Below, one piece after another: positions 2,860 through 52,415 of a DNA stretch of 64,000 nt. The notes beneath the pieces were generated by a model that was given only the letters and a program-made list of their open reading frames with translations, did not search any database and was not told the origin of the DNA. The first letter of the stretch is position 1, and each line of letters begins with the position of its first letter. This DNA is from Actinobacteria bacterium UBA2184 (lineage in GTDB: Bacteria > Actinomycetota > Coriobacteriia > Anaerosomatales > Anaerosomataceae), in assembly GCA_002328745.1 (NCBI GenBank), contig DCVQ01000027.1, forward strand, positions 3,753 to 67,752, read 5' to 3'. The translations under genes and the position numbers were made by a program.

Positions 2860-2967
2860 GGGACGGGTATAGATAGGTGGTTGCCCGCGAGCGATCTCGC
2901 GGGTCAGCGAGGGTGCCATGAAACGCCGGGCTGAATCGGTCACCTGATGACCCGGCGCGGAGCGAAC

Positions 2968-2997
2968 GGTGAGACCGGCCTCAGGGCCGGTCTCACC
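2968..2997 (+). terminator. perfect 13-bp hairpin GGTGAGACCGGCC-tcag-GGCCGGTCTCACC followed by TCGTTTCGGG
   Basis: Read directly. It lies 109 nt after the 2859 stop, has a partial T-tract, and abuts the SD of the next gene. Confidence 0.45.
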
Positions 2998-6560: not shown

Positions 6561-8945
6561 ATGAGACCGCGCTGGCGCAAGGTCTTCCGCGACCTCTTCT
6601 CGCACCGGTTCCGCACGATGCTGGTGGTGCTCTCGATCGCCATCGGCATCTTCGCGGTCGGCGTCGTGCTGGGCACGCGAGAGGTCCTGGTGCGCGAGTT
6701 CGATGTCGACTACCGATCGTCCTTCGCCGCGAACGTCACGTACTTCTCGGAGGACTTCGACGAGGACCTCGTCCGCCGGGCGGAGGCATCGCCCGGGGTG
6801 GCGGCGGCGCAGGCGCGCCGAAGCGCGACCGTGCGCTACCGATGGAACGGGAGCGCCGAGGATCGCACGCTCTCGCTCGAGGCGTTCAGGGACTACGACG
6901 ACATCAGGGTGGACAAGGTAGTCCCCGTCGGGAACGCCCAGTGGCCGCCCGGGCGTGGTGAGGTCGTGCTGGAGGCGGCGGCGAAGCAGGTCGGCGACTA
7001 CGCCGTCGGCGACGTGCTTCGAGTCGAGCGGGCCGATGGCGAGACCGTCGAGCTCCGCGTGGCGGGTTTCGCGCATGACATCAACGCGGTGCCAGCCCAG
7101 TTCGTGGGCTACGAGACGGGCTACGTCTCCTTCGACACGCTCGGGGATCTCGGCGAGGAGCCGGTGTACAACAGGCTCTCGCTGGTCTTTGCGGACGAGG
7201 ACATCTCCTGGGGCGACGCATCGCGCAAGGCGAGCGCGCTGCGGGAGGATCTTTTCGAGTCGGAGGGGCTGCTCGTTCGCTACACGAACGTTCCGGAGCC
7301 GGGCAGTCACTTCCTCGGCGACATCTTCAAGGCGGTCTCGCTTCTCCTGCTGGCCCTCGGCGTGCTCGCGCTGGGTCTCTCGGCATTCCTGGTGGTCAAC
7401 ACCATCTCGGCGATCATGGCGCAGCAGGTTCGCCAGGTCGGGATCATGAAGGCCGTTGGAGCGAGCGCGCTGCAGCTTGACTGGCTCTACGTGTTCACGG
7501 TTGCGGTGTACGGTGCGGCCGCAGTCGCGGTGGGCCTGCCGGCAGCCGCCGCGGGCGCTCGCTGGTTCACCGACTATGCCGCCGAGATACTCAACTTCCG
7601 GGTGAGCAGCTACTGGCTGCCGTGGTGGGTGGTGATCGTCGAGATCACGGTCGGGCTGCTCGTACCGCTCCTTGCCGCGGCCGGCCCGATCCGGCGGGGC
7701 GTGCGCATGAGCGTGGTGCGAGCGCTGAACGCAAGCGGCATGAGCGAAGGGAAGTTCGGCAACCGGCTTGCGGACAGGGTGCTGGGCGCGATTCGCGGTC
7801 TTCCGCGGCCTGTCGCGCTGTCACTGCGCAACACGTTCCGGCGCAAGGGGCGTCTCGCCCTCACGCTTTCCACGCTCACGCTCGCCTCGGCGGTGGTGAT
7901 ATCGGTCTGGAGCGTCCAGACGTCGATCGAGCGCACGGTCGACGATCTCGAATCGTGGTGGCAGTACAACGTGCAGATCTCGTTCGCGCTTCCGCTCGAT
8001 GCCGGGGCGGTCGAGGCCGAGGTTGCGGACGTGGCCGGGGTGGCCGAGACCGAGACCTGGCTGGGGGTGGGCGCGACCGTCATCCGGTCGGACGGCAGCG
8101 AGAACGAGTCGTTCAGCATGGTCGGGATGGATCCGGCAAGCGAGTTCGTCGGGCCGATCGTGGTGGAAGGGCGTTGGCTCGAGCCGGGCGACACCGATGC
8201 GGTCGTCGTGAACACCGACGCGCAGAACGAGGAGCCGTCACTCCGGGTCGGCAGTGTCGTCACATTCGACGTTCAGGGTGTCAGAGATACCTGGAAGGTC
8301 GTCGGTGTGGTGAAGGGCCAGCTCGGCGGCCCCGCCGTCTTCTGCGACGCCGGGCAGCTCGGCTCGCTGCTTGGCAATCCGGGCATCACCCGGCTTGTCG
8401 TGCGGGGCACGGACCCCGACCCCGACGCCGAGCAGGCCCTTCTGGAGGCGGTCGAGGACAGGCTCGTGGAGGGTGGTTACCAGGTCACCAACGCGCGAAC
8501 GCGCAGCGGTCTGTCCGATCAGCTGCGCGAGCAGCTCGGGATCCTGGTGGCGTTCCTGGTCATCATGGCGGTTCTGCTCTCGGCCGTCGGCGTGATCGGC
8601 CTCACCGGCACCATGACCATCAACGTGCTCGAGAGCACGCGCGAGATCGGCGTCATGCGCGCGACCGGCGCCCAGCATCGCTCCATCTACCAGATCTTCG
8701 TGACAGAGGGCATCGTCGTCGGAGCGATCGCGTGGGCGGCCGGGTCGGTGCTTTCGTATCCGTTGAGCCTCGGTCTGGTCCGCATCCTCGCGGAGGCCAT
8801 CGGGCTCCCTTTGAGCTATGGATTCTCGTGGGTCGGCGTGGCGGCGTGGCTCGGGATGATGCTGGCGATCTCGGGGATGGCGAGCATCGCTCCGGCCTTC
8901 CGCGCGTCGCAAGTGAGCGTGCGCGACGCCATCGCGTACGAGTGA
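6561..8945 (+). CDS. ABC transporter permease, FtsX/MacB-type (duplicated FtsX domain)
   Basis: 794 aa from ATG 6561, 4 nt after the ATPase stop. N-terminal [28 protein letters not shown], two 4-TM FtsX blocks and large extracytoplasmic loops. Confidence 0.85.
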
Positions 8946-8995
8946 GGCATCGTTCGGGAGATCGGCCGCCGGACCGCGCTTCCGACACAGCGAAA

Positions 8996-9028
8996 GACCC
9001 GCCGGGGGCGCTGGGCTCCCGGCGGGTC
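8996..9028. terminator. bidirectional hairpin between convergent genes
   Basis: GACCCGCCGGG (8996-9006) pairs with CCCGGCGGGTC (9018-9028). Flanked by AAA on the left and CTTT on the right, giving U-tracts on both strands. Confidence 0.6.
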
Positions 9029-9044
9029 CTTTCCTAGCGGTAGG

Positions 9045-9764
9045 CTAGGCGTCGGTGCTCTTGAGGCTCGCCAGCCGCGCTTCCACCTCGACGTCGGTCT
9101 CCGCCGACTCCAGGTCCTCGAACTGCGCATCCAGCGAGGACGCCGCAAGCTCGGCCGCACCGCGTGCGCGGGCCTCCTCGCGACGGATCTTGTCCTCGAA
9201 ACGGCCGATCTCGCTCGTGGGATCCGTGAGGTCGACGGCCTTGATCGCGTCCTGCACCTGATTCTGCGCGTCGGCTACGCGCGCACGGGCGACCAGCTCG
9301 TCGCGCTTCGACTTCAGCTCGTCAAGCTTGCCCTTCATGCCGTCGAGACCGGCGCGAAGCTTGTCGACGACCACCGTCTGAGAATCGACCGTCGGCTTGA
9401 GCGACGCCTTCTCGTTTTCGAAGTCGATCTGCTTCTTGATCGCAAGGCGCGCGAGATTGTCGAACTTCTCCGCCTCGACGGTCTGCCCGCTCGCGCGCAT
9501 CTCGTCGGCCTTCGCGCTCGCCGCCTTGGCCTTGCTGCCCCACTCGGCCGCCGCGCGCTCGTCCTCACGCATGTCCTCTTCCATGAGGCGGAGTCCGCCG
9601 AGGGTCTGCGCCACCGCAGCTTCGGCTTCCCGGATGCTCTCGGTGTAGTCCCGGATCATCTGGTCGAGCATGATCTGCGGGTCCTCCGCAGCGTCGATCA
9701 GGTTGTGGATGTTGGCCCGCGCAAGTTGCGCGATCCTGCCGAGAATGGATTGCTGCGATGCCAT
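9045..9764 (-). CDS. pspA: PspA/IM30 family protein
   Basis: 239 aa from ATG 9764 (GGAGGGG SD). MASQQSILGRIAQLARANIHNLIDAAEDPQIMLDQMIRDY is the canonical PspA N-terminus, followed by coiled coil throughout. Confidence 0.88.
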   Translation of the reverse strand: MASQQSILGRIAQLARANIHNLIDAAEDPQIMLDQMIRDYTESIREAEAAVAQTLGGLRLMEEDMREDERAAAEWGSKAKAASAKADEMRASGQTVEAEKFDNLARLAIKKQIDFENEKASLKPTVDSQTVVVDKLRAGLDGMKGKLDELKSKRDELVARARVADAQNQVQDAIKAVDLTDPTSEIGRFEDKIRREEARARGAAELAASSLDAQFEDLESAETDVEVEARLASLKSTDA

Positions 9765-9810
9765 CGTGTCCCCTCCGTTTCGTGTCGCGGGGCTGGTGCC
9801 CCGTGATCTC

Positions 9811-11904
9811 CTAGAATCGGCCCTTCCCGCCTCGTCGTCCGCTCGAGGAGCGATTGCTGCTCGTTCTTCTCGAGCCCGACGAACTGCTCGTCGAGCGGCT
9901 GGAACCCGACGACCCGCCACCGGTCCGGCGGGACGAGGAACCTCCGAAGCTCGATCCGGCGGACGCGCCGCCGCTCATCCACGCCGCTGGTGGACGGTGC
10001 GAGGACTCGGCCCTGCCCGCCGCGGGGGCTACGGTCCCGCCCGACGCCGCGACGTCGCCCCGCGCGTAGCGGAGCGCGGACTCCGCGTACTGCTGAGCGG
10101 CCTGCGCCGCTGCGAGCGCGGCGGCCGGATCCGCAGCGATCAGCTGCACCGCCTGAGCCAGTCGCGACCTAGATTCAACCAGGCTCGAGCGCGCCTGGGC
10201 GTCCACGGCGCGAGCGCGTGTCGAGATGAACGACTCCGCCGTGACGATGCGGTCGCGCGCCGTCGACATCGTCGCATTCGCCGAGGAACGGGCGGCTGCG
10301 GCGCGCTCGGCCTCGTCGCGGGCCTCTGCGAGCACAACATCCACCTTGCCGGCGACCTCTCGGATCTTCGCGAGGTGCGCGGGCGGATCGAGCGGCGGCG
10401 ACGCGAGCGCGGCGCGGGCCGCGGCGACCGCCTCGCGGGCGCTCGCGACGAGGTCGGCGTGCGCTCCGCCACCGACCTGCGAGGCGGCGGCCTCGAGCTT
10501 CGCGGCCTCATCGGCTAGCGCCGTCTGTGCCGCCTTGAGCTGGTCGCCGGTCGTCGCGACCGCTGTGAGCAGCTGCTCCGCGGTGGCGGCGCCCTCCTCG
10601 GCGGCGCGGGCCGAGAGCGCCGCGGCGTTGCGGTCGCCCTTCGCGATCGCGTCGGTGCCCTTCGCGACGGCCTCGCGCGCGGCCGCCACGAGTGCGGCCG
10701 CCTCCTCGTCGTCATCGGCGACCTCGCCGAGCGCGTCGGCGAGGTACGCCTTCTTGAGCGCAGCGAGCGCATCGCGGGTCTTGGGGACCTCGGCTTCGAT
10801 CCGGTCAAGGCGCGTGGTTACCGCCGCGAGCACCTCATCCGCGCGGCCGGCGAGGTTGCGCAACCGGGAGAAGTTCTCGGCCTTCTCGTCGAGCCGCGCG
10901 TCCGCGGCGCCTGCGAGTTCGATGATCTTCTTGAGCAGGTTCCGACGATCGGCATCGGACTTCGGCTCGGAGTCGTAGAGCTTATGCTGCAGCCGGAAGG
11001 CCCCGGCGGCGTCGCGCCGGGACTCCTCCAACGCCGAGCGGAACTCGCCGATGGCCGCCGCGCCGAACTCGGCCTCGGCGAAGCCGAGCTCCTGCTCCGA
11101 CGTGCGCAGCGCGTCGTCGATTTCCACGAGGAGCTTCCCGGCGGTGGTCTCGAGCTCCTTGGTGCTCGGCTCGCCGGCCGGACCCGCGCCGCCGCCGCGC
11201 TTCTTGCGGCGCGAAGCGAAGAAGGCGGCCACGCCGCCGCCCGCGGCGAGAAGCCCGCCGGGGATCAGGCAGCTCCAGGGCGAGGAGCCGCCCGAGCCGT
11301 CCGACGTGGAGGCACCGGCACCCTCATCGGCCGCCTCGTCGAGCGCCGTGCGGAAGCCGTCTGCCGCGGCGGTCACCGCACCGGCCCACTCCTCATCGCG
11401 GAGCTTCGGTTCGATATCATCGCTCGCGATCGCCGCAAGCTGGCTGTCGGTGAGCGGGAAGTCACCGTCGACCGACCACGCGTACTGCCCGTCTCCCACG
11501 GCGACGGCGATCAGCACGTCCTTCACGCCGAGGCCATTGATGGAGGCGGCCTCGTCGGCCCAGTCGTTGGAGTCCATCCCGTCGAACGACCGCACGAACA
11601 CGACGAAGAGCTGCACGCCGTGCTCGCCCTCCAGGCGTTCGAGCGCCTCGTCCATCGCCTCGGTGTCGCTGCCGAGCACGCCGGCGTCATCGGTCACGAG
11701 GCCCGGGTCGAGGGACAACGGAGGCGCCGCGAGGGCCGCGCCGAAGGAGGACGTCCACACGATCGCCGCGCCGCACGCGACCAGGAAGACACGTAGCAGG
11801 GCCGCGCGGTGCGGAAGAGCACGCCGTAGCTGCTCCAATTCGAGCCACCTCCGTTGCAGTGAGCGAGGATCACGCGCGGACCGCGTTGTTCGCTTTGTAC
11901 CCAT
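9811..11904 (-). CDS. TPM-domain membrane protein with long Ala-rich coiled-coil and Ser/Gly/Arg tail
   Basis: Signal/TM, then a TPM phosphatase-like domain (VTDDAGVL...GVQLFVVFV...DVLIAVAVGDGQYAW), a TM segment, about 330 aa of helical repeats and an S/G/R-rich C-terminus. An alternative TTG start at 11838 is preceded by GGAGG. Confidence 0.75.
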   Translation of the reverse strand: MGTKRTTRSARDPRSLQRRWLELEQLRRALPHRAALLRVFLVACGAAIVWTSSFGAALAAPPLSLDPGLVTDDAGVLGSDTEAMDEALERLEGEHGVQLFVVFVRSFDGMDSNDWADEAASINGLGVKDVLIAVAVGDGQYAWSVDGDFPLTDSQLAAIASDDIEPKLRDEEWAGAVTAAADGFRTALDEAADEGAGASTSDGSGGSSPWSCLIPGGLLAAGGGVAAFFASRRKKRGGGAGPAGEPSTKELETTAGKLLVEIDDALRTSEQELGFAEAEFGAAAIGEFRSALEESRRDAAGAFRLQHKLYDSEPKSDADRRNLLKKIIELAGAADARLDEKAENFSRLRNLAGRADEVLAAVTTRLDRIEAEVPKTRDALAALKKAYLADALGEVADDDEEAAALVAAAREAVAKGTDAIAKGDRNAAALSARAAEEGAATAEQLLTAVATTGDQLKAAQTALADEAAKLEAAASQVGGGAHADLVASAREAVAAARAALASPPLDPPAHLAKIREVAGKVDVVLAEARDEAERAAAARSSANATMSTARDRIVTAESFISTRARAVDAQARSSLVESRSRLAQAVQLIAADPAAALAAAQAAQQYAESALRYARGDVAASGGTVAPAAGRAESSHRPPAAWMSGGASAGSSFGGSSSRRTGGGSSGSSRSTSSSSGSRRTSSNRSSSGRRGGKGRF

Positions 11905-17316: not shown

Positions 17317-18232
17317 TCCTTCCTGCGCAGCAGCGCCCTCCGTCGGCTGGCGTGCGTGCCTCCAGCGCGCGCGTGCTGCCGCGCTGCACCCGCTTGCCCC
17401 GTTGGCGGTGGTCGCTCCGCTGATCGTGATCTTCTGGATGACCGAATCCTTCGTGCATGTGGTGTTGTTCGACGCGGACTTCTGGGGCCAGGTCTTCCAT
17501 CCGGCGCCGCACGAGTTGTGGATGCGCGGACTGATGACTCTGGTGATGTTGCTGCTTGCGCTTGCGGGAAGTGCTCTCTCGCGGGAGCGCGCGCGGCGCA
17601 TCGAGCAGCTGGAATCGTACCAGCAGCGCCTCCGCGAGCTGACCGCACGTCTGGCGTACGCTGACGGCGACGAGCGTAGGGACCTCGCGAGCAGGCTCCA
17701 CGAAGGGGTGAGCCAGCAGCTTGCGGCGGCCCGCGTCTACCTCGGGAGCGTCGAGGCGACCGATGGCGAAGGACGCGAGGCGCTCGACCGGGCGGGCACG
17801 ATCCTGGAGTCCTCCCTCGCCGAGTGTCGCGAACTGGCCGGTGAGATCGCGCCTCCCGGTCTCGAGCACTACGGTCTGGGGGCCGCCCTCGAAGCGCTTT
17901 CGGCGCGGGTGAGACGCCGGACCGGAGCACGGGTGGAGATCACGGGAGCGGAGTCCGCGTTCCCGCTTGCGGCGGACGTTCAGCGGGTGGCGTTCCAGGT
18001 GATCGCCGAGATCATCGAATCCGCTGTGGCCGACCGGACCGTCCGGGCGCTCGCGCTCGAGTTCCGGCGCGAAGACGGCGCTCTCGCGGTGGGATTCCAC
18101 TGGGACGCACGAGGGCTCACGGACTACTTCTCGGTGCAGGAGCGCATCGGTGCGGTCGGCGGTCGTCTGTGCCTGGAGCCGTCGGGCCCGGACTCGCGCC
18201 TCACGCTGAGGGTGCCGCTCCCGGCCGCCTGA
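17288..18232 (+). CDS. HisKA_3-type sensor kinase homologue with degenerate ATP-binding domain
   Basis: Two N-terminal TM helices. H-box DERRDLASRLHEGVSQQL. The C-terminal domain lacks the N-box Asn and the DxGxG/GxG motifs (reads EIIESAV, FHWDARGL, FSVQERIGAVGG). The start is uncertain; GTG 17288 overlaps the RR gene by 29 nt. Confidence 0.6.
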   Translation: MKASRPLKTDPSCAAAPSVGWRACLQRARAAALHPLAPLAVVAPLIVIFWMTESFVHVVLFDADFWGQVFHPAPHELWMRGLMTLVMLLLALAGSALSRERARRIEQLESYQQRLRELTARLAYADGDERRDLASRLHEGVSQQLAAARVYLGSVEATDGEGREALDRAGTILESSLAECRELAGEIAPPGLEHYGLGAALEALSARVRRRTGARVEITGAESAFPLAADVQRVAFQVIAEIIESAVADRTVRALALEFRREDGALAVGFHWDARGLTDYFSVQERIGAVGGRLCLEPSGPDSRLTLRVPLPAA

Positions 18233-18380
18233 GTCCCGGGCGCGCCTTTCCTTACCACCTCTCGGGGATTCCCTGACGGGGTCGGGGCGTTTTCCGATGC
18301 ACCGCGCCCGGCCGGGCGCCGACCATCGTAGCGGGGAGACTCACTGCCGGCGTGCCGGCACCGCACACGATTGGACCCGG

Positions 18381-20357
18381 ATGTCCGACCGCACAGCCAA
18401 GACGAATGCCTCGCAGCCCGGCGTGTTGCTCGATGCTGCGGCCGAGGCGCTGATCCTTCTCGATACCGGCGACGTCTCGAGCGTGGCCGAGCTCATCGAG
18501 CGCGTGGGCGCGGTCGCGTGTGCGTTCGGCGATACCCTTCCATCCGATCATCCTGCCGAACGCGCACGTGCCGCAGCCGCCGCCCTCGCCGACGGAGACC
18601 TGTCCGCGCTGGCGCCGCTCGAGGCGGCGCTGATCGCGATCAAGGGCGAGATCGACCGGGCGGCTTCCGGCAAGGGCCGGCCCCGCGCCACGAAGCCCCC
18701 TCCGGCGGCCCCGGCCGAACAGGGTGCATCCGCGGCCGATGCCGCGACCGCGGCGACCGAAGCCGGGGCCATGCCGCTCGCCGGCGACGAGGAGCTGCTC
18801 CGTGACTTCGGCGTGCGTGCGGCGGAGCATCTCGACGATGCGGACGAGCGACTCCTCAGGCTCGACGCCGATCCGACCGACCGAGAGTCCATCGACGCGG
18901 TCTTCCGCGCGTTCCATACGATCAAGGGCATGGCCGGCTTCCTCGCGCTCGACGCAATCTCGCACGTTGCCCACGAGGCCGAGGGGATACTCGCCGCCGT
19001 CCGGGCAGAGGGGAACGGTCTCACCGAGCAGGCGGTGCGCGGCCTGCTCATCTCGGTGGACACCATGCGTATCCTCGTCGCCGAGACGAGCGGCGTGGGT
19101 CATACGCGGCCCGACGACGCCCCGGCGACCGGCACGGTCCCCGGCGGCGGGAGCGCTTCCGGGGCGCCCGTCCGCTCGGCAACCGGGGGCACGGTGCGCG
19201 TTGGAGAGGAGCGGCTGGACGCGCTTCTCGACGCGATCGGGGAGCTCGTCATCGGTGAGTCGATGGTCTCGGCGTCGGTTCGCGGCGGTGCGAGCGTGGC
19301 CGAACTCGGGACGCGCCTCGACCAGCTCGACAAGATCACGCGCGAGCTGCAGCAGATGGCCACGTCGCTTCGGATGGTGCCGTTGCGGGCGGTGTTCCGG
19401 CGCATGGCGCGGCTGGTGCACGACGTGTCGGACAAGTCAGGCAAGCGCATCGAGCTGGTCACGACCGGCGAGGACACCGAGCTCGACAAGACCGTGGTCG
19501 ACCGCATCGAGGACCCGCTCGTCCACGCGCTGCGAAACGCCATCGACCACGGCGTCGAGACCGCCGAGGAGCGGCGCGCGGCGGGCAAGCCCGAGGTCGC
19601 CCGCATCGAGCTTCGCGCGTTCCACTCGGCGGGATCCATCCACATCGAAGTCGCCGACGACGGGCGCGGTCTCGACGCCGAGCGCATCCGCGAGCGCGCG
19701 GTGACCGCCGGCGCCATCTCCCCCGACGACGCCCTCGACGGCAGGTCGCTGCTCGACGTGCTGTGCATGCCGGGCTTCTCCACCGCCGAGGTGGTCACCG
19801 ACGTCTCCGGCCGCGGCGTGGGCATGGACGTGGTGCGCCGCACCGTCGAGGAACTGCGTGGCCGCCTCGAGGTGGCCAGCGCTCCGGGCCGGGGCACCAC
19901 GTTCAGCATCCGGCTGCCCGTGACCCTTGCGATCATCGACGGCATGGTGCTGCGCGTCGGCGTCGACCGGTTCATCGTCCCGCTGCTCGCCATCGAGCGC
20001 TCCATCCGGCCGACCGCCGCGCAGATCACCACGATCGCGGGTCGCGGCGAGATGGTCGCCGCCGAGGGCGAGCCGCTGCTCCCGCTGGTGCGCCTGCACC
20101 GGCTCTTCAGCATCCCCGACGCCGAAGAGGACCCGTCCTCGGCCGTTGTGGTGATCGTCAGCGATGGCGGCGTGCGCGCCGGGCTGCTCGCATGCGAGCT
20201 GCTCGGCCAGCAGCAGACCGTCATCAAACCGCTCGGCGACGGGCTTCCGGACATGCCCGGGATCGCCGGCGGTGCCGTCATGCCGGACGGACGCGTGGGG
20301 CTGATCCTCGACGCGGCCGGGATCGTGAGATCCGCCAACGATGGAGGAGGTGAGTGA
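18381..20357 (+). CDS. cheA: chemotaxis histidine kinase CheA
   Basis: Hpt motif FRAFHTIKGMAGF. Dimerisation and HATPase domains (HALRNAIDHG, DDGRGLD, GRGVGMDVV). C-terminal CheW-like domain. About 140 aa of N-terminal extension precede Hpt. The start at ATG 18381 is plausible but not proven. Confidence 0.88.
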   Translation: MSDRTAKTNASQPGVLLDAAAEALILLDTGDVSSVAELIERVGAVACAFGDTLPSDHPAERARAAAAALADGDLSALAPLEAALIAIKGEIDRAASGKGRPRATKPPPAAPAEQGASAADAATAATEAGAMPLAGDEELLRDFGVRAAEHLDDADERLLRLDADPTDRESIDAVFRAFHTIKGMAGFLALDAISHVAHEAEGILAAVRAEGNGLTEQAVRGLLISVDTMRILVAETSGVGHTRPDDAPATGTVPGGGSASGAPVRSATGGTVRVGEERLDALLDAIGELVIGESMVSASVRGGASVAELGTRLDQLDKITRELQQMATSLRMVPLRAVFRRMARLVHDVSDKSGKRIELVTTGEDTELDKTVVDRIEDPLVHALRNAIDHGVETAEERRAAGKPEVARIELRAFHSAGSIHIEVADDGRGLDAERIRERAVTAGAISPDDALDGRSLLDVLCMPGFSTAEVVTDVSGRGVGMDVVRRTVEELRGRLEVASAPGRGTTFSIRLPVTLAIIDGMVLRVGVDRFIVPLLAIERSIRPTAAQITTIAGRGEMVAAEGEPLLPLVRLHRLFSIPDAEEDPSSAVVVIVSDGGVRAGLLACELLGQQQTVIKPLGDGLPDMPGIAGGAVMPDGRVGLILDAAGIVRSANDGGGE

Positions 20358-20890
20358 GCGTGATCCAAACGGAGACGGAGACGGGAGCCCTGGCAGGCAA
20401 GTACCTGACCTTCGCGCTCGCCGATGAGCACTACGGCATCGAGATCCTGCGCGTGCAGGAGATCGTCGGGCTGCTCCCGATCACGCGCGTGCCGCGACTG
20501 CCCGATTTCGTGGCGGGTGTGGTGAATCTGAGAGGCAAGGTCATCCCCGTGGTCGACCTGCGGCAGGCCTTCGGGATGCCCCCGGTCGAGCTCAACGACC
20601 GGACGTGCATCGTCATCGTCCGCACGACGCGGTCTGACGGCCGCACTACCGTCATGGGCGCGCTCGTCGACGAGGTCTCGGAGGTCGCCGACCTGCCGTC
20701 GTCCGCGATCGAGGAGACACCCGAGTTCGGCGTCGGCGTCGATACGTCATTCGTGAAAGCCATCGGACGGCTGGAGGACCGTGTCGTGCTGCTGCTCGAT
20801 GTGGACCTCGTACTGTCCGGTCAGCAACTGGAGATCGTCGAGCGCGCCGCAGCGGCCGCCGAACGAGCGCGTACTGAAGGGGGTTCGTGA
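20354..20890 (+). CDS. cheW: chemotaxis coupling protein CheW
   Basis: 178 aa. [22 protein letters not shown]...[20 protein letters not shown] overlap with the cheA stop, with GGAGGAGG upstream. Confidence 0.9.
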
Positions 20891-22545
20891 TGATCAAGAA
20901 CTGGAGTCTTGGGCTCAAACTGGCAGGCGGGTTCGGCATCGTTGCGCTGCTGCTCGTCATCGTCGGCGGCGCCGCGATGCTCGACATGCGCACGATGAGC
21001 GGCCTCGCGGCCGAGATCACCGAGGATGTCGACATCGCCGACAACATCATGGAGGCGAAGTTCGAGGTGGAGAAGCAGCGGCTGCTGCTGATGGAGGTCA
21101 TCCAGTCGTCGGACGCGGCCGAGATCGAGGCGCTCGCGAGCGATCTCGAGGATTCGAACAAGGTGTTCGACGAGCTGATCGATGCGGCCGTCGCGTCGCT
21201 CGAAGAGGATGCCAGGGGCGATGAGGTGGCCGCCGATGTGCTCCCGCAGGCGCGCGAGGCGGCAGCGGTGCATGACGACGAGCTCGAACCCGTGATCGCG
21301 GAAGCCGTCACGCTCGCGGCGAGCGCCACCACGGAGGAAGCGCGCGACGCTATCGGGGAGCAGCTCGCGGAGCTGGACGAGACGGCCGACGCAGCGGGCG
21401 AGCACATGGTCGGCCTGATGGAGGAAGTCGAGCTCGGCACGGACACGATGGTGGACAACGCGTCCGTCGCGCTCAAGGCGACCACGTCCCGCGCGCTTGC
21501 GCAGTCCATCATCCTGCTCGTGGCCGGCGTTCTTGTCGCCGCAGGTGCCGCGTGGTTCAACACCCGGGCCATCACCTTGCCGATCAACCGCATCATCGCG
21601 GGCCTCACCGCCGGCGCCGAGCAGGTCTCGAGCGCGAGCAATCAGGTGGCCTCCGCAAGCCAGCAGCTGGCCGAAGGCGCGAGCGAGCAGGCCGCCAACC
21701 TCGAGGAGACGTCCTCTTCGCTCGAGGAGATGTCGGGCATGACGCGTCAGAACGCCGACAACTCCCGTCAGGCGGACGCCATCAGCCGCGAGGCGCAGGG
21801 CGCCGCGCAGCGCGGCGTGGACGCGATGAGCCAGATGTCCGCCGCCATCAAGGGCATCAAGGACAGCTCGGACGCCACCGCACGCGTCATCAAGACGATC
21901 GACGAGATCGCCTTCCAGACCAACCTCCTGGCCCTGAATGCGGCCGTTGAGGCCGCTCGCGCCGGAGACGCCGGCAAGGGCTTCGCCGTCGTGGCCGAAG
22001 AGGTCCGCTCGCTCGCGCAGCGCTCGGCAGAGGCCGCCAAGAACACCGCGGTGCTCATCGAAGGCTCGCAGGCAAGCGCCGAGCAGGGCGTCAACGTGAC
22101 CGCCGAGGTCCAGAAGACGCTCGAGCAGATCGTCTCCACCGTCGACCGGGTCACGATGCTCGTGGGCGAGATCGCTGCCGCGAGCCAGGAGCAGGCCCAG
22201 GGCATCGACCAGGTGAACATCGCGGTCGCGCAGATGGACCGGGTGACGCAGGCCAACGCTGCCAACGCCGAGGAGTCCGCCTCCGCGAGCGAGGAACTCT
22301 CGGCCCAGGCTCGCGAGCTCGGCGAGATGGTGACGCTGCTCATCAAGACGGTCCGGGGCGCCAACGCCGCGGTCGGCACGGGGTCCGCGCGGGTTGCCGC
22401 CAGCCCCTCGGCCGGCACGCTCAACCGTGTTCACGCAGCGAGCGCCGGTGCACGCGTGCATGCGGCGGCTGTGGCGCGCAACGCCCGGGCGGTCGACCCC
22501 GAAGAGGTCATCCCGCTCGACGATGAGGACCTGGCCGACTTCTAG
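20887..22545 (+). CDS. methyl-accepting chemotaxis protein (4-helix-bundle sensor)
   Basis: Two TM segments. Hallmark hairpin [43 protein letters not shown]-terminus ...[11 protein letters not shown]. The start overlaps the cheW stop. Confidence 0.9.
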
Positions 22546-22566
22546 GCCGGTGGAAGCGACGAGACA

Positions 22567-23382
22567 GTGCCTGCGATGATGGACATACGGAAGAAGACGT
22601 TCGACCGCCTGGTCGAGATCGTGTACGAGACGAGCGGCATCTCGCTCGGCCCGCGCAAGCAGGCGCTCGTGTGCGCGCGCGTGAGCAAGCGCATGCGGGT
22701 GCTCGGCATCGGCTGCTTCGACGAGTACCTCGCGTATCTCGAGGAACATCGTGGCGAAGTCGTGGGCCTGCTCGACGCGATCTCGACCAACGTGACGAGC
22801 TTCTTCCGCGAGCCGCACCACTTCGACTTCATCGCCGAAGCTGCGGGGCTGTGGTACGAGTCGGGTCAGCGGCGCTTCAGATTCTGGAGCGCCGCGAGCT
22901 CGACCGGCGAGGAGCCGTACTCGCTCGCGATGGTGGTGAAGGAGGCGCTGCCGTTCCCGGATGTGGACCTGCGCATCCTGGCGACCGACATCTCCACCGA
23001 GGCCCTGGCCGTCTGCGAGGACGCCGCCTACGATCTCGGCAGGATGGAACCGGTGCCTGCCGCGCTTCGGGACCGCTGGTTCTCGCCGGTACGCGGCACC
23101 GCGCAGTCGCTGTGGCAGGCGAAGCCCGCGCTGCGCGACGCCGTCGTCTTCCGGCGCATGAACCTCTCGACGCCGCCGTTCCCGATGACGGGGCCGCTCG
23201 ACGCCATCTTCTGTCGCAACGTGATGATCTACTTCGACGACGTGGTGCGGCGCCGCCTCCTCGAGGAGTGCAACCGGCTGCTCAAGCCCGGTGGGTTCCT
23301 CGTCGTGGGACACGCGGAATCGCTTGCGGGCATGATCGCCGACTTCAAGTACGTTCGGCCTTCGATCTATCGCAAGGCATGA
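22567..23382 (+). CDS. cheR: chemotaxis protein methyltransferase CheR
   Basis: 271 aa. TNVTSFFREPHHF, FWSAASSTGEEPYSLAM, IFCRNVMIYF. Confidence 0.9.
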   Translation: MPAMMDIRKKTFDRLVEIVYETSGISLGPRKQALVCARVSKRMRVLGIGCFDEYLAYLEEHRGEVVGLLDAISTNVTSFFREPHHFDFIAEAAGLWYESGQRRFRFWSAASSTGEEPYSLAMVVKEALPFPDVDLRILATDISTEALAVCEDAAYDLGRMEPVPAALRDRWFSPVRGTAQSLWQAKPALRDAVVFRRMNLSTPPFPMTGPLDAIFCRNVMIYFDDVVRRRLLEECNRLLKPGGFLVVGHAESLAGMIADFKYVRPSIYRKA

Positions 23383-23383
23383 A

Positions 23384-23878
23384 GTGGACGTCGTCGTCGG
23401 CATCTCGGAGTACGCGGTGTCGTCCGATCCGGACGACACGCTCATCACGTACTCCCTGGGCAGCTGTGTCGGTCTCGTGCTGCACGATCCCGTGGCGGGC
23501 ATCGGCGGGCTGCTGCACGCGATGATGCCCGTCTCGACCGCCGATCCCGGGAAGGCCGCGATGACGCCGGCGATGTACGTCGACACCGGTGCCGCCCGCA
23601 TGCTGCAGGAGATGTTCGACCGGGGCGCGACGCGGCCGAACCTGTCCGCGTGGGTCGTCGGGGCGGCGAACCAGCTCGATTCCGACAACCTGTTCCGTAT
23701 CGGCGCGCGCAACCACGCCATCGTGCGCAAGGTGCTCTGGAAGAACGGGATCCTCATCGCTGACGAGGAGACCGGTGGGTCGATATCGCGAACGGTCACC
23801 CTCGAGGTGGGGGACGGTCGCGCGTTCGTGAAGTCAAGCGGAGGCGTCCGCGAGCTGCGGCCGCCGAGGACGAGATAG
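23384..23878 (+). CDS. cheD: chemoreceptor glutamine deamidase CheD
   Basis: 164 aa. TYSLGSCVGLVLHD (catalytic Cys), GGLLHAMMP, NIGARN-like FRIGARN. GTG lies 1 nt after the cheR stop. Confidence 0.85.
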   Translation: MDVVVGISEYAVSSDPDDTLITYSLGSCVGLVLHDPVAGIGGLLHAMMPVSTADPGKAAMTPAMYVDTGAARMLQEMFDRGATRPNLSAWVVGAANQLDSDNLFRIGARNHAIVRKVLWKNGILIADEETGGSISRTVTLEVGDGRAFVKSSGGVRELRPPRTR

Positions 23879-23886
23879 GAACGGCG

Positions 23887-25787
<1,901 letters not shown>

Positions 25788-46092: not shown

Positions 46093-46121
46093 TTGGGTGA
46101 ACTATCGATTCTTGGTACTAT
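46093..46121 (+). promoter_or_regulatory. candidate sigma70-type promoter (TTGGGT-17 nt-TACTAT)
   Basis: Read directly, in a lower-GC spacer about 50 nt upstream of ATG 46174. Confidence 0.35.
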
Positions 46122-46173
46122 CCGTGCGTTGTCCAGGTGGACTTCCTGCATCCTTCCGGCAAAGGAGCACTCA

Positions 46174-46731
46174 ATGGCGGCATGTCCCCGTGGGGCCGAC
46201 TGTGTCTTTCACCAGACCATCGAGCCCAGTGTCATCAAACGTGTCCGGTACGCGAGCGCGTACGTCTACTGCCGCGGGGGGCGGCACGAGGAGTGCGCGA
46301 TCCATAGCTGCCTCGTACGGGGCGAGCAGGTGTCCCGCAACCTGATGCCCGATGGAGCGATAGGAGACTACATGGATGAGCAGGCCGGCGCAGCGAAGCG
46401 TCGCTTCCTCGTGATCGAAGACTCTCCCGTGTTCGCTGCCCTTGCGGCGAGCACGCTCGCGTCCCACTTCGCCGGCGCCGAGATCGTGCGCCACTCGTCG
46501 TTCACGGCCGCGGCTGAAGATCTTCGCAGCGGCGATCACACCGCCGTGGTCTGCGGCTTCGGCCTTGGCGATGGCAAGACCGCCCATCACGTGCGCGAGC
46601 TCACCAGCGCTCCGATCGTCGTGCTCACCGGTCGCCCGGGCGAGATCGATGCGCCGCGCCGCTCGCAGGTGGTAGCGAAGAGCGCCGGGCCTGAAGCTCT
46701 GGCCGCGGCGCTCCGCGCAGTGCTCGCCTAG
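46174..46731 (+). CDS. Cys/His-rich N-terminal domain fused to a receiver-like domain lacking the phospho-acceptor Asp
   Basis: 185 aa from ATG 46174 (AAGGAG SD). CPRGADCVFH...YCRGGRHEECAIHSC, then FLVIEDS...AVVCGFGLGDG...VVLTG...VAKSAGP. Confidence 0.65.
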   Translation: MAACPRGADCVFHQTIEPSVIKRVRYASAYVYCRGGRHEECAIHSCLVRGEQVSRNLMPDGAIGDYMDEQAGAAKRRFLVIEDSPVFAALAASTLASHFAGAEIVRHSSFTAAAEDLRSGDHTAVVCGFGLGDGKTAHHVRELTSAPIVVLTGRPGEIDAPRRSQVVAKSAGPEALAAALRAVLA

Positions 46732-47953: not shown

Positions 47954-48135
47954 GTGGAGTCTCCTTCCTCGTGCGCCATATCAGGTCGCACTGCGGGCAG
48001 ACGCAGCAGTCCCGACACATCACGAGGAGAGCGAAGGACAACCGAGTCTTGGGTGGGCGCCCTTGGTCAAGGGCGCTGTGCTCGGTGCAGTATACGCTAC
48101 CGGCCGATAGAACGCGAATCTCATACAAGCATGCG

Positions 48136-48164
48136 AAGGGGAGGGACCCTCGGGCCCTCCCCTT
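48136..48164 (-). terminator. hairpin AAGGGGAGGG-(a)CCCtcGGG-CCCTCCCCTT after the HAMP gene
   Basis: Read directly. It lies about 50-80 nt downstream of the TGA-TAA double stop at 48215. A second hairpin GGCCGACG-gggcgaag-CGTCGGCC is at 48175-48198. Confidence 0.5.
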
Positions 48165-48214
48165 GTTCGCACGCGGCCGACGGGGCGAAGCGTCGGCCCT
48201 CATCCGTACGGTTA

Positions 48215-49126
48215 TCAGCTGCCTGAGAGCTGCTTCAGCGTGGTCGAAACCACGTGGATGAAGTCCGAGAAGAACTTCTCGAAGGAGCCGATCTCGTCGT
48301 TCGTGCCGTCGGACACGAACTCCGCGCTGAAGTCGCCACCGGCGACCCGCATGGAGATGTCCTGCATGCTCTCGGTCATCCGGCGAAGGCGCCGTAGTAC
48401 GAGCAGGTCCATCATCATGCCGATGATCAGCGTCGAGACCAGCAGTGTGACACCCACCACGGCGAGCGTCGACAGCATCGACCTGTTCGCTCCGTCGGCC
48501 TGGGCCGACACGTCCTCGATGACGTACACAACGCCCAGGGCCTCATCGTCGGCGCCGTACACGGGGAAGACCGCATGCCCCTTGCTCGATGAGTCGGTGC
48601 TCCACTTGATGGTCCAGAAGTCACCCTCGCCGGTCATGCCCTCGTGACAGGTCTTCGTGCACGAACCGATCTCCACACCGATGGCCTGGCTGTTCTCCGA
48701 GACCTCGGTAGCGGGGCGCTCGAACTGCATCTTGTCCGCGGCCGCATCATCTGTCGCGAAGAGGAGGGCGTAGTTCTCGCGCTCTGCCCACGCCGAGCTC
48801 TCGCCGAGCTCCTCGCGCGCTGCCGCGTACGTGCCCTCGTCGGCAACGGCCTTGTCGAGCAGGAAGCCGTACTCGTCGCCGGTGACAGCCTTCATGCCCT
48901 CAAGGATGCGCTGCACTTCCCCGGGGTTCCCGACCGGATCGACCGCTACGCCCTCACCCTTGATCTGCTCCCATGCCGCGAGGCTTTCGACTCCGGCCTC
49001 CGCAGCCGTGGAGTCGATGCTCTTGGAGTACGACTGGTGAAGGTACACCACCACGGCTATCGCGCCCAGAAGATTCACGATAACCACCGTCGCCAGGATG
49101 CGCGTTCTCACTGACATGTTCTTCAT
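48215..49126 (-). CDS. membrane protein: extracytoplasmic CxxCH (haem c) sensor-like domain + TM + HAMP, no output domain
   Basis: 303 aa from ATG 49126 (alternatives 49180 and 49117). TM1, about 190 aa outside with the single motif CTKTCH (48644-48661), TM2, then a HAMP domain (RRLRRMTESMQDISMRVAGGDFSAEF...DEIGSFEKFF). Ends in a double stop. Confidence 0.75.
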   Translation of the reverse strand: MKNMSVRTRILATVVIVNLLGAIAVVVYLHQSYSKSIDSTAAEAGVESLAAWEQIKGEGVAVDPVGNPGEVQRILEGMKAVTGDEYGFLLDKAVADEGTYAAAREELGESSAWAERENYALLFATDDAAADKMQFERPATEVSENSQAIGVEIGSCTKTCHEGMTGEGDFWTIKWSTDSSSKGHAVFPVYGADDEALGVVYVIEDVSAQADGANRSMLSTLAVVGVTLLVSTLIIGMMMDLLVLRRLRRMTESMQDISMRVAGGDFSAEFVSDGTNDEIGSFEKFFSDFIHVVSTTLKQLSGS

Positions 49127-49196
49127 ACGTGCATTCGCCCCCTTGTTCTCGTTCCAACGCCGAATGGCGTGTTTGCCCAACTCTGTTGATGCGACT

Positions 49197-52184
49197 CTAC
49201 GGTGCCAATGTGTGACAACTCAGGCAGATGGATGGCTCGGGCACCGGGCTGCTGTCAGCGCTGCAGGCCGGAGACGTTGACGGCTGCTCGGTATCATCGG
49301 ATTGAGTCGCATCGCTCAGGACAGGTGCTGCTGTCCCTGAGATCTCCGTAGAAACCGCAGAACCGGCCTGCGTATCGGGGGGTGTGTTCGCTGCGATCGA
49401 TGCCGACAGGGTAGGCACGGGTCCTGCGGGGATCACGCACGAAGCCGACCGGCTCGCCGCAGTGCTGTGGCAGTTCGCGACGGATCCGTCGGTGCCGCCG
49501 CATGAGACGGTGAGATGTCCGCCAACGGTGTGACAGCCCGCCTCGGTGCATGCATGCGCGTCGACGGTCGTGGGCGTGTCCGGCGTCGGATCGGGGATGC
49601 TGCGGACATCGAGCGCGGAATAGCCTGGGGGCGGCGATGGGTTGTCATGACAACCGCAGGCACCCTCCTGGGGCAGTCCATCGTTGCCGATCTCAACGCC
49701 CGTGTGGACCGTGGCACTGTCGGGGTGGTAGGTGTCCGGAGGATCGGCCGTCGCCATGTGGCAACTGAGCGTCGGGTCGTTGCCGCCGCATCCGATGATC
49801 ATCGACGGTCCGCCGGCGACATGGCAGCCCGGCGTGCCGTAGCAGCCGCCCACGCCGCTATGGAGCGTCGACAGGCGCGTCGTGGTGTGGCAGCCGGCGG
49901 TGACACAGGTGCCGGGCGTCGGCACGTTGTCGGCGCTGTACTCCACGCCTATGTGGTGGTTCGGGTTCTTCGTGTGGTAGCTGATGCTGCGCAGGTGGCA
50001 GCTGAGTGCCGGGTCGGTGCCGCCGCATCCGATGATCATCGACGGTCCGCCGGCGACATGGCAGCCCGGCGTGCCGTAGCAGCCGCCCACGCCGCTATGG
50101 AGCGTCGACAGGCGCGTCGTGGTGTGGCAGCCGTCCTTCACGCAGGAGCCCGGCGTCGGCACGTTGGCCGTGCTGTACTCCACGCCTATGTGGTGGTTCG
50201 GGTTCTTCGTGTGGTAGCTGATGTTGCGCAGGTGACAGCTTAGGGCAGCGTTATCGGCGTTACCGCCGCAGCCCAGTACGCCGGTCGGCCCGCCCTCGAC
50301 GTGGCAGCCCGGGATCGCGCATCCGACCTCGTGGTGCGTTTCGTAGACGTTGACCGTGACATGACAGCCGTCTTTCACGCAGGAGCCCGGCGTCGGCACG
50401 TTGGCCGTGCTGTACTCCACGCCTACGTGCACGGTCGCGAAGTCGTCGTGCTTGTTGGCATCGCTCGCGGTGTGGCACGCCGGCGTCCCCGCGCCACCGC
50501 CGCACGTCATGTAGGTCGGACCTCCCGCAACGTGGCAGCCCGCCGTGTAGCAGACTCCGACCTCTTCGTGCAGATCGCGCACATCGGCGGTGGCGTGGCA
50601 TCCCGGTCTCACGCATCCGGTCTCAGATACCTGTCCGTCGTGGCCGATCTGCGTGGCTATGTGCGCCGCGTCAGCGGTCGCGTGGCGCGAACTCGCGGTG
50701 TGACACGAGGTGCCCGACTGGTCGTCGGTGCCGCCGCACGTCATCGTGCGCGATCCTCTGATGTCACCCGTGTTCGAGTGGCAGCCGCTGATGGTACAGC
50801 CGATCTCGGCGTGCAGGACGCGCACGTCCGCGGTCGTGTGGCAGCCCGGCTTCGCACAGCCCGTGGACGAGACGTGCCCCTCGTGGTCGATCTGAGTGGC
50901 CACGTGTGCACTGCCGATGGCACCGTGGATCGAGTCCCCGTGGCACGTCGCGCATGCCGCGGCGGTGTCGCTCGCTGGCCAGTCGCCCATGACTGCGGCG
51001 ACGGTCGTCTCGTTCTTGTTGTGGCAGCCGAGGCAGGTATCGCCAGCGATGACCGAGTTCCGCCGGGCGTGCTCGATCCCGATGTCCGTCGTGTGGCACG
51101 ATCCGCACGTCACGCTCACACCGCTCGTGCGATCGGTGTAGGTCGCCGATGCCTGCGAGCGGCTCTCCGGCGCATGCACGACATCGTCGTCGGTGTGGCT
51201 GTATTCGTCGTTGAGATAGTCCGGATGGCAGTTGCCCTCGCCGGTGCCGCACGCGGTGACGACCGGGGTCTTTGGCTCGGCCTCGAAGTCGTGGCATGCG
51301 GGCTCGCCCTCGGCCGCCGAACCCGAGCATGTGGCGGGCTTGTCCGGGTGGAGCGCGTGCAGGTCGTTGCCATCGTGGCATCCTGCGCCGGTCGTGCCGC
51401 AGCTTGCGGTGCCGCTTGCCTCGACCGAGCCGGAGATCACGTCGGAGGCGTGCATCGGCGCGCGCACCGTCTCTTGGTGGCAGTCCTCGCAGCGGTGGTC
51501 CTCCCAGTCGGAGAGGACCTGGTCGAGCGCCCCCGACTGCTCGTCGTTGTGGCACTCGACGCACCCGATCTCGGTGCCGTAGTCGCCTCCGTCGACCTCG
51601 TTCACCACGGAGTGCGCGGTCTTGAGATCGCGCGAGTGGCAATCGGCGCAGGTCGCCTTTGCTTCGCCGTCGGCCGCCGTCCTCACTACCTGTTCGAAGT
51701 CCGTGCCGAGGGCGGTGTGCAGCGATTCGCGGTAGTGTCCCTTGGGCCACGCGTCGGCGAGCGTCACGCAATCGGAGACGCCCTCCATACTGCCGTCGTG
51801 GCACCCGGTGCACTCGTGCTGATTCGGGGCGTGGCAGGGGATGCATCCGACGCCCGTGTAGTCGTGGCACACAGTGCACGCGGTGTCGGGATGGTACTTG
51901 TTGAAGTCGCTCAGGCCCTCATCGAACCCGTGGCAGCCGTCGCCCGAGTTCGTGCAGCCGCTCTCGCGACGCGCGCTGTAGTCGCTGGCGGAGGTGAAGG
52001 TGTGGACGGTCTCGGTGGGAGGGTTCCAGCCTGCGGCAAACGCAAGACCGCCGATCAGGACCACAGCGATCCCGATCTTGCCCTTGCGGGCCCTGATCCA
52101 CTGTGCGAGTCCCTCGCGAGCCGGCTGCGGCGTTCCGGCGCCGTAGGACGCCGTTCCGCCGCTGGGATGCTTCGTGCCCCTCAT
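49197..52184 (-). CDS. N-terminally anchored giant multihaem c-type cytochrome (10 CxxCH + 21 C-x(4-10)-CH motifs)
   Basis: 995 aa. TM anchor KIGIAVVLIGGLAFAAGW. Canonical motifs: CTVCH, CIPCH, CTGCH, CADCH, CVECH, CEDCH, CGSCH, CLGCH, CATCH, CLSCH. The C-terminal half consists of tandem modules. GGGGGG SD before ATG 52184. Confidence 0.85.
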   Translation of the reverse strand: MRGTKHPSGGTASYGAGTPQPAREGLAQWIRARKGKIGIAVVLIGGLAFAAGWNPPTETVHTFTSASDYSARRESGCTNSGDGCHGFDEGLSDFNKYHPDTACTVCHDYTGVGCIPCHAPNQHECTGCHDGSMEGVSDCVTLADAWPKGHYRESLHTALGTDFEQVVRTAADGEAKATCADCHSRDLKTAHSVVNEVDGGDYGTEIGCVECHNDEQSGALDQVLSDWEDHRCEDCHQETVRAPMHASDVISGSVEASGTASCGTTGAGCHDGNDLHALHPDKPATCSGSAAEGEPACHDFEAEPKTPVVTACGTGEGNCHPDYLNDEYSHTDDDVVHAPESRSQASATYTDRTSGVSVTCGSCHTTDIGIEHARRNSVIAGDTCLGCHNKNETTVAAVMGDWPASDTAAACATCHGDSIHGAIGSAHVATQIDHEGHVSSTGCAKPGCHTTADVRVLHAEIGCTISGCHSNTGDIRGSRTMTCGGTDDQSGTSCHTASSRHATADAAHIATQIGHDGQVSETGCVRPGCHATADVRDLHEEVGVCYTAGCHVAGGPTYMTCGGGAGTPACHTASDANKHDDFATVHVGVEYSTANVPTPGSCVKDGCHVTVNVYETHHEVGCAIPGCHVEGGPTGVLGCGGNADNAALSCHLRNISYHTKNPNHHIGVEYSTANVPTPGSCVKDGCHTTTRLSTLHSGVGGCYGTPGCHVAGGPSMIIGCGGTDPALSCHLRSISYHTKNPNHHIGVEYSADNVPTPGTCVTAGCHTTTRLSTLHSGVGGCYGTPGCHVAGGPSMIIGCGGNDPTLSCHMATADPPDTYHPDSATVHTGVEIGNDGLPQEGACGCHDNPSPPPGYSALDVRSIPDPTPDTPTTVDAHACTEAGCHTVGGHLTVSCGGTDGSVANCHSTAASRSASCVIPAGPVPTLSASIAANTPPDTQAGSAVSTEISGTAAPVLSDATQSDDTEQPSTSPACSADSSPVPEPSICLSCHTLAP
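49749..50222 (-). repeat. two tandem 237-nt (79-aa) coding repeat units inside the cytochrome gene
   Basis: 49782-49895 is identical to 50019-50132 (114 nt, compared by eye). The rest of the unit is near-identical. More diverged copies continue to about 50906. Confidence 0.85.
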
Positions 52185-52211: not shown

Positions 52212-52415
52212 CTAGTCGAGTCTCAGTCCGAGTATGTCCTGGGCCGCCTGCTGCAGATTCCGAAGCTTCTCGGCGTCATCGGGATCTTCAGGCTTGATGA
52301 GCGTCACGATGAAACCTACGCGCATGGCGATGGCGCCGCGCGTCTTGAACACATCGAGGTTGTTGCGCTGAATGTGCTCCTCGATGCGTTGCGCGTAGTC
52401 GTAGAGCTTCCCCAT
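52212..52415 (-). CDS. 67-aa hypothetical protein, first gene of the cytochrome operon
   Basis: MGKLYDYAQRIEEHIQRNNLDVFKTRGAIAMRVGFIVTLIKPEDPDDAEKLRNLQQAAQDILGLRLD. GGAGGTGGGGA SD before ATG 52415. The stop lies 27 nt before the cytochrome start. Confidence 0.6.
   Translation of the reverse strand: MGKLYDYAQRIEEHIQRNNLDVFKTRGAIAMRVGFIVTLIKPEDPDDAEKLRNLQQAAQDILGLRLD

Follow-up and report, generated by a model that had tools for sequence, protein, structure and literature searches.

HAMP domains normally relay signals between the sensor and the output of one protein. Af1503 of Archaeoglobus fulgidus, the source of the first HAMP structure, runs from a first transmembrane helix (TM1) through an outside domain and a second transmembrane helix (TM2) to HAMP with no output, as does the receptor described here; it is not known to carry a haem motif or to have a partner. 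The receptor is encoded in a 64,000-nucleotide (nt) stretch of DNA, hereafter the window, from Actinobacteria bacterium UBA2184 (contig DCVQ01000027.1, positions 3,753 to 67,752). Its coding sequence lies at 48215..49126 on the minus strand (303 amino acids (aa), with the ATG at 49126 and the stop codon included) and predicts a putative haem-Cache sensor followed by a HAMP domain alone. On this strand the operon opens with the gene for a 67-aa protein (52212..52415); 27 nt further on comes that for a 995-aa membrane-anchored multihaem cytochrome c (49197..52184), and the receptor gene follows after another 70 nt. We propose that the receptor is a haem-based redox or gas sensor of envelope electron transfer that signals in trans through the 67-aa protein, a reading to which we give roughly even chances.

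Among described systems the nearest is the Cache_heme-HAMP (CHH) receptor of Pseudomonas azotoformans, which has no output domain and whose HAMP domain binds a Ser/Thr kinase encoded in the same operon (10.64898/2026.05.25.727664). Small helical modules of this kinase contact HAMP, and nitric oxide (NO) enhances phosphorylation of the receptor (10.64898/2026.05.25.727664). CHH sets a precedent for helical modules of a partner protein reading a haem-Cache receptor that ends in HAMP. The question of how an output-less HAMP domain signals was thus first answered in 2026, for one proteobacterial family with a bound Ser/Thr kinase; the locus in the window may offer a second, unrelated solution, namely an operon that encodes a sensor together with a 67-aa protein that probably reads it and a cytochrome from which the signal is likely to come. 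The receptor resembles CHH in its predicted order of haem-Cache, transmembrane segment and HAMP without a fused output, and in that the output would be encoded separately in the same operon, the candidate partner here being a small three-helix protein. The two systems differ in most other respects. The sensor is the proximal module of dCache_3 here and DUF3365/PF11845 in CHH, and the motif is CX3CH (Cys-x3-Cys-His) here and CXXCH there. Whereas a PknB-like kinase with C-terminal helical repeats adjoins CHH, the partner here has 67 aa and no kinase domain. Furthermore, the operon in the window contains a giant multihaem cytochrome, and its host belongs to the Gram-positive Coriobacteriia rather than to the Proteobacteria. 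NO sensing and the HAMP contact have been established experimentally for CHH, whereas the family in the window is known from sequence and models. A likeness between a helix of the CHH kinase (IGP[LI]AR.[LV]V) and a segment of the small protein (RGxIA[LM]xxGF) is a lead only.

A second point of comparison is the sCache_heme family (DUF3365/PF11845; GSU0582, GSU0935 and Tll0287), Cache domains shown by experiment to bind haem, which carry CXXCH in an insertion between β3 and β4 (PMC12889525). An earlier note on this DNA had likened the outside domain of the receptor to those of GSU0582 and GSU0935. The likeness holds for the fold, which is PAS- or Cache-like and extracytoplasmic in both, and for the position of the motif, which in each case (for the receptor, by its model) is a short helix-containing β3-β4 insertion in a pre-existing Cache scaffold. 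It does not extend to kinship in sequence: membership in the GSU0582/GSU0935 family was rejected when neither Pfam scans (the receptor at E<=1, and the 25 most-matched families of 103 members at E<=10) nor a PDB profile search at E<=10 detected any similarity, and the nearest relatives of the receptor are dCache_3 proteins. Additionally, GSU0582 and GSU0935 feed a methyl-accepting chemotaxis protein (MCP) signalling domain that is absent from the receptor, and the phyletic ranges differ, sCache_heme being rare in Actinomycetota (PMC12889525). Because the fold position is the same but sequence membership is lacking, the putative haem site of the receptor is probably an acquisition separate from that of sCache_heme. 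This comparison suggests that insertion of haem c into a Cache scaffold may have occurred more than once.

The topology of TM1, outside domain, TM2, HAMP and stop that the earlier note had read from the sequence was borne out by the open reading frame (ORF), by the distribution of basic residues and by an AlphaFold2 model. Residues K2, R7 and R9 at the N-terminus are basic, as is the RRLRR stretch after TM2, and by the positive-inside rule residues ~31-215 are therefore predicted to be extracytoplasmic. The model, built on 103 homologues and made without cofactor, is confident (predicted local distance difference test score (pLDDT) 90, predicted template modelling score (pTM) 0.75). From the N-terminus it consists of a helix at 6-56 that includes TM1, an α/β domain (68-205), one unbroken helix (207-262) that comprises TM2 and the HAMP helix AS1, a connector, and the helix AS2 at 278-301, at the end of which the protein terminates. 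TM1 is a hydrophobic helix in the model at residues ~9-29 (49040..49102, minus strand, as for all receptor features below) and TM2 lies at residues ~217-243 (48398..48478) within the helix 207-262, with RRLRR on its cytoplasmic side. HAMP comprises AS1 at ~244-262, the connector GGDF at 263-266 and AS2 at 278-301 (48224..48397).

This HAMP domain is genuine though divergent. The Pfam HAMP model (PF00672) matches the receptor with an E-value of 0.0023 and 18.7 bits, under the 25-bit cut-off, and is matched in 95 of the 103 family members scanned, with a best E-value of 1.1e-5. NCBIfam gave partial matches of the TM2-HAMP segment to CtpM, WalK and SiaA. In a Foldseek search with the full receptor model the best match was a WalK model (E 1.3e-8), ahead of PAS, Cache and LOV domains; haem-Cache structures were not among the top 50 matches to the full-length model, which were dominated by the TM-HAMP scaffold. 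The connector and AS2 share a signature, RVAGGDF...DEIGxFExFF, that is invariant or nearly so across the family. Of 114 family members, 107 contain its core, DE[ILV]G.F[EQ]..; so do 37 of 74 short relatives, but it is missing from every one of the 39 relatives that bear an output. A Pfam scan found no MCPsignal or HisKA/HATPase_c output in the receptor or in the 103 homologues, in agreement with the earlier note, which had seen no output domain.

A search of 5.8 billion proteins recovered 114 homologues with 42-96% identity to the receptor, from metagenome-assembled genomes (MAGs) labelled Coriobacteriia or Actinomycetota. Homologues that have not lost sequence at a contig end are 288-329 aa long and all stop after HAMP. 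Thus the receptor gene is intact and conserved, and it is not truncated. One homologue in a long-read MAG (L042, ~7900..9000) is apparently frameshifted past its CTAVCH motif, probably through an assembly error.

The outside domain of the receptor is a single Cache-like domain by profile search, Pfam and Foldseek (residues 31-215, 48482..49036). Read base by base, its one haem-type motif is C156-T-K-T-C160-H161 (48644..48661), a putative site of covalent haem c attachment. The earlier note was right that there is a single such motif outside, but CTKTCH has the spacing C-x3-C-H rather than the CxxCH that it had named. All 114 homologues have C-x3-C-H at this position, and none has C-x2-C-H; the alignment columns of C156, C160 and H161 are invariant, and the motif pair are the sole cysteines in most of these proteins. 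The CX3CH of the receptor is therefore far from a chance match. It lies in an insertion of ~24 residues (residues ~152-175, 48602..48673, EIGSCTKTCHEGMTGEGDFWTIKW) between β3 and β4. MAFFT alignment of both groups showed that this insertion is present in the haem clade, where it reads ENGxCxxxCH....GEGDYWxVxW, and missing from haem-free relatives. The model has strands at 147-153 and 182-190 between which the motif falls on a short helix (158-161), and its pLDDT drops in the loop 151-170, to 81 and 69 per 10-residue block.

Two further histidines set the haem clade apart. H30, at the outer membrane boundary after TM1 (YLHQSY), is invariant in the haem clade, whereas haem-free relatives have N, R, Q or other residues at this position. 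The alignment of haem-type and non-haem sequences showed H30 and H184 to be conserved in the haem clade only, and for this reason we regard both as candidate distal haem ligands. Together, the invariant Cys-x3-Cys-His, its location outside the membrane, its position in the fold, the CX4CH motifs of the neighbouring cytochrome and published CX3CH sites indicate that, most likely, one haem c is attached at CX3CH by a cytochrome c maturation system. Non-canonical spacings are in use in this lineage, as the CX4CH motifs next door illustrate, and among MtrA homologues CX3CH is reported to be one of the variant sites for haem (10.1101/2025.05.29.656830).

A profile of the outside domain (residues 31-222) was compared with 1.84 billion representative proteins, giving 208 hits. 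Beyond the close family nearly all of these match by the membrane-proximal half of their sensor, and they include dCache_3 proteins found with E-values of 1e-21 to 1e-5. PF14827 (dCache_3) was present in 99 of 100 relatives scanned. The receptor itself does not reach the PF14827 model, and sCache_3_2 is weakly matched in 5 of 103 family members. Most of the dCache_3 relatives are 385-425 aa long and consist of dCache_3, a transmembrane segment and HAMP, with nothing after. They are homologous to the receptor in the proximal Cache module, TM2 and HAMP, with profile E-values down to 1e-21, and they share with it the C-terminal ending, the DEIGxFExFF signature and the small partner gene. They differ from the receptor, which has lost the distal Cache module and gained the CX3CH insertion, H30 and H184; no such Cys motif was found in the dCache_3 relatives recovered with the profile.

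Based on these matches, the outside domain is homologous to the membrane-proximal module of dCache_3 (PF14827). The receptor lacks the membrane-distal Cache module of its dCache_3 relatives: its model contains one α/β module and not a double Cache, and the stretch N-terminal to this module has 61 residues compared with 170-180 in the relatives. Intermediates with both Cache modules and the insertion exist (P0116, 416 aa, and the L041 protein, 413 aa). Fused outputs, for which the earlier note had suggested a search among homologues, are absent from the close family and occur in remote relatives only, where 100 proteins included nine with HisKA, six with MCPsignal, five with GGDEF and two with SpoIIE. 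No description of the HAMP-only dCache_3 subfamily or of its small partner was found in the literature searched.

The two genes upstream of the receptor, the 67-aa gene and the cytochrome gene, had been missed by the earlier note. The 995-aa cytochrome contains 10 CxxCH and 9 CX4CH motifs and 67 cysteines in all, and no Pfam or PDB relative of it was found. Its translation also shows longer spacings (CYGTPGCH, CGGTDPALSCH). A 237-nt (79-aa) module is repeated 2.8 times within its gene at 49758..50429, with two copies 93% identical. We fetched 64 neighbourhoods (designated by L numbers), which include 35 informative loci of the haem clade and 22 of haem-free relatives. In 31 of the 35, the gene immediately upstream of the receptor's encodes a multihaem cytochrome, with 9-31 haem motifs; of the 22 haem-free relatives, one has a multihaem cytochrome next to it. 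Relatives in culture, from OPB41/Anaerosomatales, carry 17-18 multihaem cytochromes, and among them is an obligate Fe(III) reducer (PMC9686372). The receptor is a candidate regulator of such cytochrome systems, which are poorly understood in Gram-positive Coriobacteriia of the subsurface.

The first gene of the operon encodes a predicted cytoplasmic protein (MGKLYDY...) that AlphaFold2 models as a three-helix unit with a pLDDT of 96.4. It has no Pfam or NCBIfam match, and database searches returned only short hypothetical proteins. Likenesses to the N-terminal helices of H-NOX and to an XRE-type helix-turn-helix, at E >= 0.18, were rejected as noise. The gene accompanies the receptor in most haem-clade loci, either adjacent to it or with the cytochrome in between. 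It also lies beside 18 of 22 haem-free dCache_3-HAMP-only relatives, at 24-34% identity; these haem-free loci had been picked by HAMP patterns only, so that the sample is unbiased towards the small gene. Those with the small gene come from Anaeromyxobacter, other Deltaproteobacteria (Myxococcota) and Coriobacteriia. Furthermore, two MAGs that contain both receptor types have a paralogue of the small gene beside each (L039 and L043; L011 and L058). Since this gene pairing is conserved, we propose the 67-aa protein as the likeliest partner to read the receptor's signal. The earlier note had suggested signalling in trans through another membrane protein, with the MCP or a kinase as candidates; signalling in trans is indeed the best-supported reading, with CHH as its precedent, but the conserved neighbours point to the cytoplasmic 67-aa protein in place of a membrane partner.

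Fusions of the small protein are consistent with such a role. At Anaeromyxobacter-type loci a ~195-aa Roadblock/LC7-like protein ends in the small domain; its N-terminal 110 residues are weakly Roadblock/LC7-like by Pfam (E 0.0035-0.0056) and match 7f8m (E 0.03) and 7yh1 (E 0.35) in the PDB. The gene for this fusion is preceded by one for a DUF4388-Roadblock protein. This pattern fits the small protein as an adaptor, and the cassette suggests that HAMP-only receptors may be connected with Roadblock-type regulators. An example is L053 (5952..8684), with genes for a DUF4388 (PATAN)-Roadblock-like protein, a fusion of a Roadblock-like domain with the 67-aa domain, and a dCache_3-HAMP-only receptor; the same cassette is found in L045, L048-L050, L056, L057 and L060-L062.

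These observations can be assembled into a mechanism. The receptor would be a dimeric two-pass membrane protein, encoded by the last gene of a conserved three-gene operon, in which a single Cache module gained a β3-β4 insertion with CX3CH and takes one haem c. The redox or ligand state of this haem would shift, either by electron exchange with an envelope chain or on binding of a diatomic ligand, and the change would alter the Cache domain and pass through TM2 to the HAMP four-helix bundle. Because there is no fused output, the state of HAMP would be read in trans, with the 67-aa protein docking on the family-specific HAMP surface (DEIGxFExFF) and passing the signal on to a downstream target.

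Several points weigh against this proposal. The CX3CH spacing is non-canonical, and it is from sequence that we infer haem binding by the family. Genes for cytochrome c maturation were not found in the window when the WWD motif and haem-rich ORFs were looked for; the neighbouring cytochrome implies that they lie elsewhere in the genome. The 67-aa protein has no significant Foldseek relative (best E 0.18), the fused domain matches Roadblock weakly, and it is gene neighbourhood that suggests contact between the small protein and HAMP. One locus, L065 (GCA_001714665.1, a 2.04-Mb contig), has the small gene alone (8001..8204), flanked by RlmKL and the DEAD-box helicase at the syntenic position and with no receptor or cytochrome within 8 kb; it is either a remnant or has its partner encoded elsewhere in the genome. 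Finally, four haem-clade loci (L015, L017, L034 and L038) have the small gene and the receptor without an adjacent cytochrome, L015 being a weaker case as its upstream sequence extends for 1.6 kb only. Their receptors still keep CX3CH, H30 and H184, and the link between receptor and cytochrome is therefore frequent and not obligatory. At L017 the receptor is followed by a gene for a secreted tandem-rhodanese lipoprotein with two CYTGH active-site motifs (8884..9993, plus strand) and, further on, by ThiF/ThiS-like and aldehyde:ferredoxin oxidoreductase-like ORFs, identified by likeness to annotated genes of L065.

A broader hypothesis, which we offer tentatively and with less confidence than the mechanism itself, is that c-type haem sites arose twice in Cache domains, the one here without descent from sCache_heme but at the same β3-β4 position. 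This would have happened within a widespread module of HAMP-only receptor and dedicated 67-aa adaptor reading its HAMP, found in Actinomycetota and Myxococcota, with the Roadblock/LC7-type fusion of the adaptor in the latter. In subsurface Coriobacteria the module would report the redox state of a giant envelope multihaem cytochrome and, with it, of the extracellular electron transfer of a Gram-positive cell.

The alternative that survives best, unlikely as we judge it, is that the protein is not a sensor but an electron-transfer or anchoring subunit, a membrane monohaem cytochrome that feeds or docks the multihaem cytochrome and whose HAMP-like tail is a stalk. Its gene shares an operon with the cytochrome 70 nt upstream, an arrangement seen in 31 of 35 loci; the protein has a single haem site near the membrane and no enzymatic output, and the invariant H30 at the TM1 boundary could join in binding the cofactor. 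Redox roles have moreover been proposed for stand-alone sCache_heme proteins (PMC12889525). However, the closest relatives are haem-free HAMP-only proteins that share the HAMP signature and the small partner and have no cytochrome alongside, which argues against electron transfer as the ancestral role of the module. Few residues of the protein are as conserved as those of the HAMP connector and AS2, while a passive stalk would need no such conservation. The haem-clade loci without a cytochrome retain CX3CH, and outputs of MCP, HisKA or GGDEF type occur in remoter relatives of the sensor module.

Marginally less probable again is that CX3CH holds no haem and acts as a thiol/disulfide switch or as a metal site (Zn, Cu or Fe), in which case the trans-signalling scheme would be otherwise unchanged. 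The non-canonical spacing and the absence of matches to Pfam haem-domain families would suit such a site, and the dip in AlphaFold2 confidence at 151-170 would suit any missing cofactor equally. An invariant His directly after the second Cys is, however, the signature of a haem c site. The motif is extracytoplasmic and lies where sCache_heme has its haem motif in the fold (PMC12889525); multihaem cytochromes that themselves use CX4CH are found alongside it, and CX3CH haem sites have already been described.

We consider it improbable that the receptor is a divergent member of the sCache_heme/CHH family (DUF3365, PF11845), which would make it a periplasmic sensor of NO with a Ser/Thr kinase, encoded at another locus, reading its HAMP domain. 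The architecture of haem-Cache, transmembrane segment and HAMP without output is shared, and the haem motif occupies an equal position in the fold (10.64898/2026.05.25.727664). Profile searches nevertheless point away from this family: the receptor does not match PF11845 at E<=1; PF11845 is not among the 25 most-matched of the 74 families found with 103 members at E<=10; and a PDB profile search at E<=10 returned none of 3B42, 3B47 and 5B82, whereas it is dCache_3 that almost all the scanned relatives contain. The motif here is CX3CH, compared with a CXXCH that is 99% conserved in sCache_heme (PMC12889525), and sCache_heme is reported to be rare or absent in Actinomycetota (PMC12889525). No kinase flanks the operon in the window, where the flanking genes encode a DEAD-box helicase and RlmKL, and no protein-kinase Pfam family was found among the called genes of L001-L003. 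A dCache_3-derived sensor read by the 67-aa protein remains our preferred interpretation.

The limits of the receptor gene were defined as follows. The longest ORF opens at a TTG at 49180, but homologues all start at MKN(M/L)S(I/V)RT, which corresponds to the ATG at 49126, and a Shine-Dalgarno-like AAGGGGG is read in the DNA 10 nt 5' of this ATG; for these two reasons the ATG is favoured. Just 3' of the stop, RNA folding predicted two G+C-rich hairpins (48130..48200, minus strand) with a folding energy of -57.9 kcal/mol (z = -4.3), and none of 200 shuffled sequences folds equally well. A simple terminator scan left these hairpins unflagged, no T-run being present there, and simple promoter and terminator scans were uninformative in this G+C-rich DNA. 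The hairpins probably mark the end of the operon. The next gene, for the DEAD-box helicase, lies ~260 nt beyond the receptor in conserved synteny. The possibility raised in the earlier note, that the receptor is an MCP or histidine kinase truncated by a 3' frameshift or decayed to a pseudogene, can for practical purposes be dismissed: an unusual ending after HAMP is all that was found in its favour, while the end point is shared by 114 homologues of conserved length from many metagenomes, the haem-free 385-425-aa relatives also end 16-42 residues past the DEIG motif, a strong hairpin follows directly after the stop, and no more than ~260 nt remain before the next gene, itself syntenic.

Other features of the window were recorded in passing. 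A gene at 46093..46731 (plus strand) encodes a protein of 212 aa whose N-terminus is rich in Cys and His and whose C-terminal half is weakly receiver-like (NCBIfam E 0.03-0.045); it was rejected as a specific partner of the receptor, as related MAGs keep it beside the DEAD-box helicase without the receptor too (L065). The only Rfam hit in the window is a c-di-GMP-II-GAG riboswitch aptamer at 2902..2989 (plus strand), with 55.1 bits against a gathering threshold of 40 and an E-value of 3.7e-8. Same-strand ORFs at ~18210..24735 (plus strand) resemble a chemotaxis cluster around a 4HB-type MCP (20887..22545), the one gene among them that was scanned, which matches Pfam MCPsignal and 4HB_MCP_1. 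This cluster is ~26 kb away from the receptor gene.

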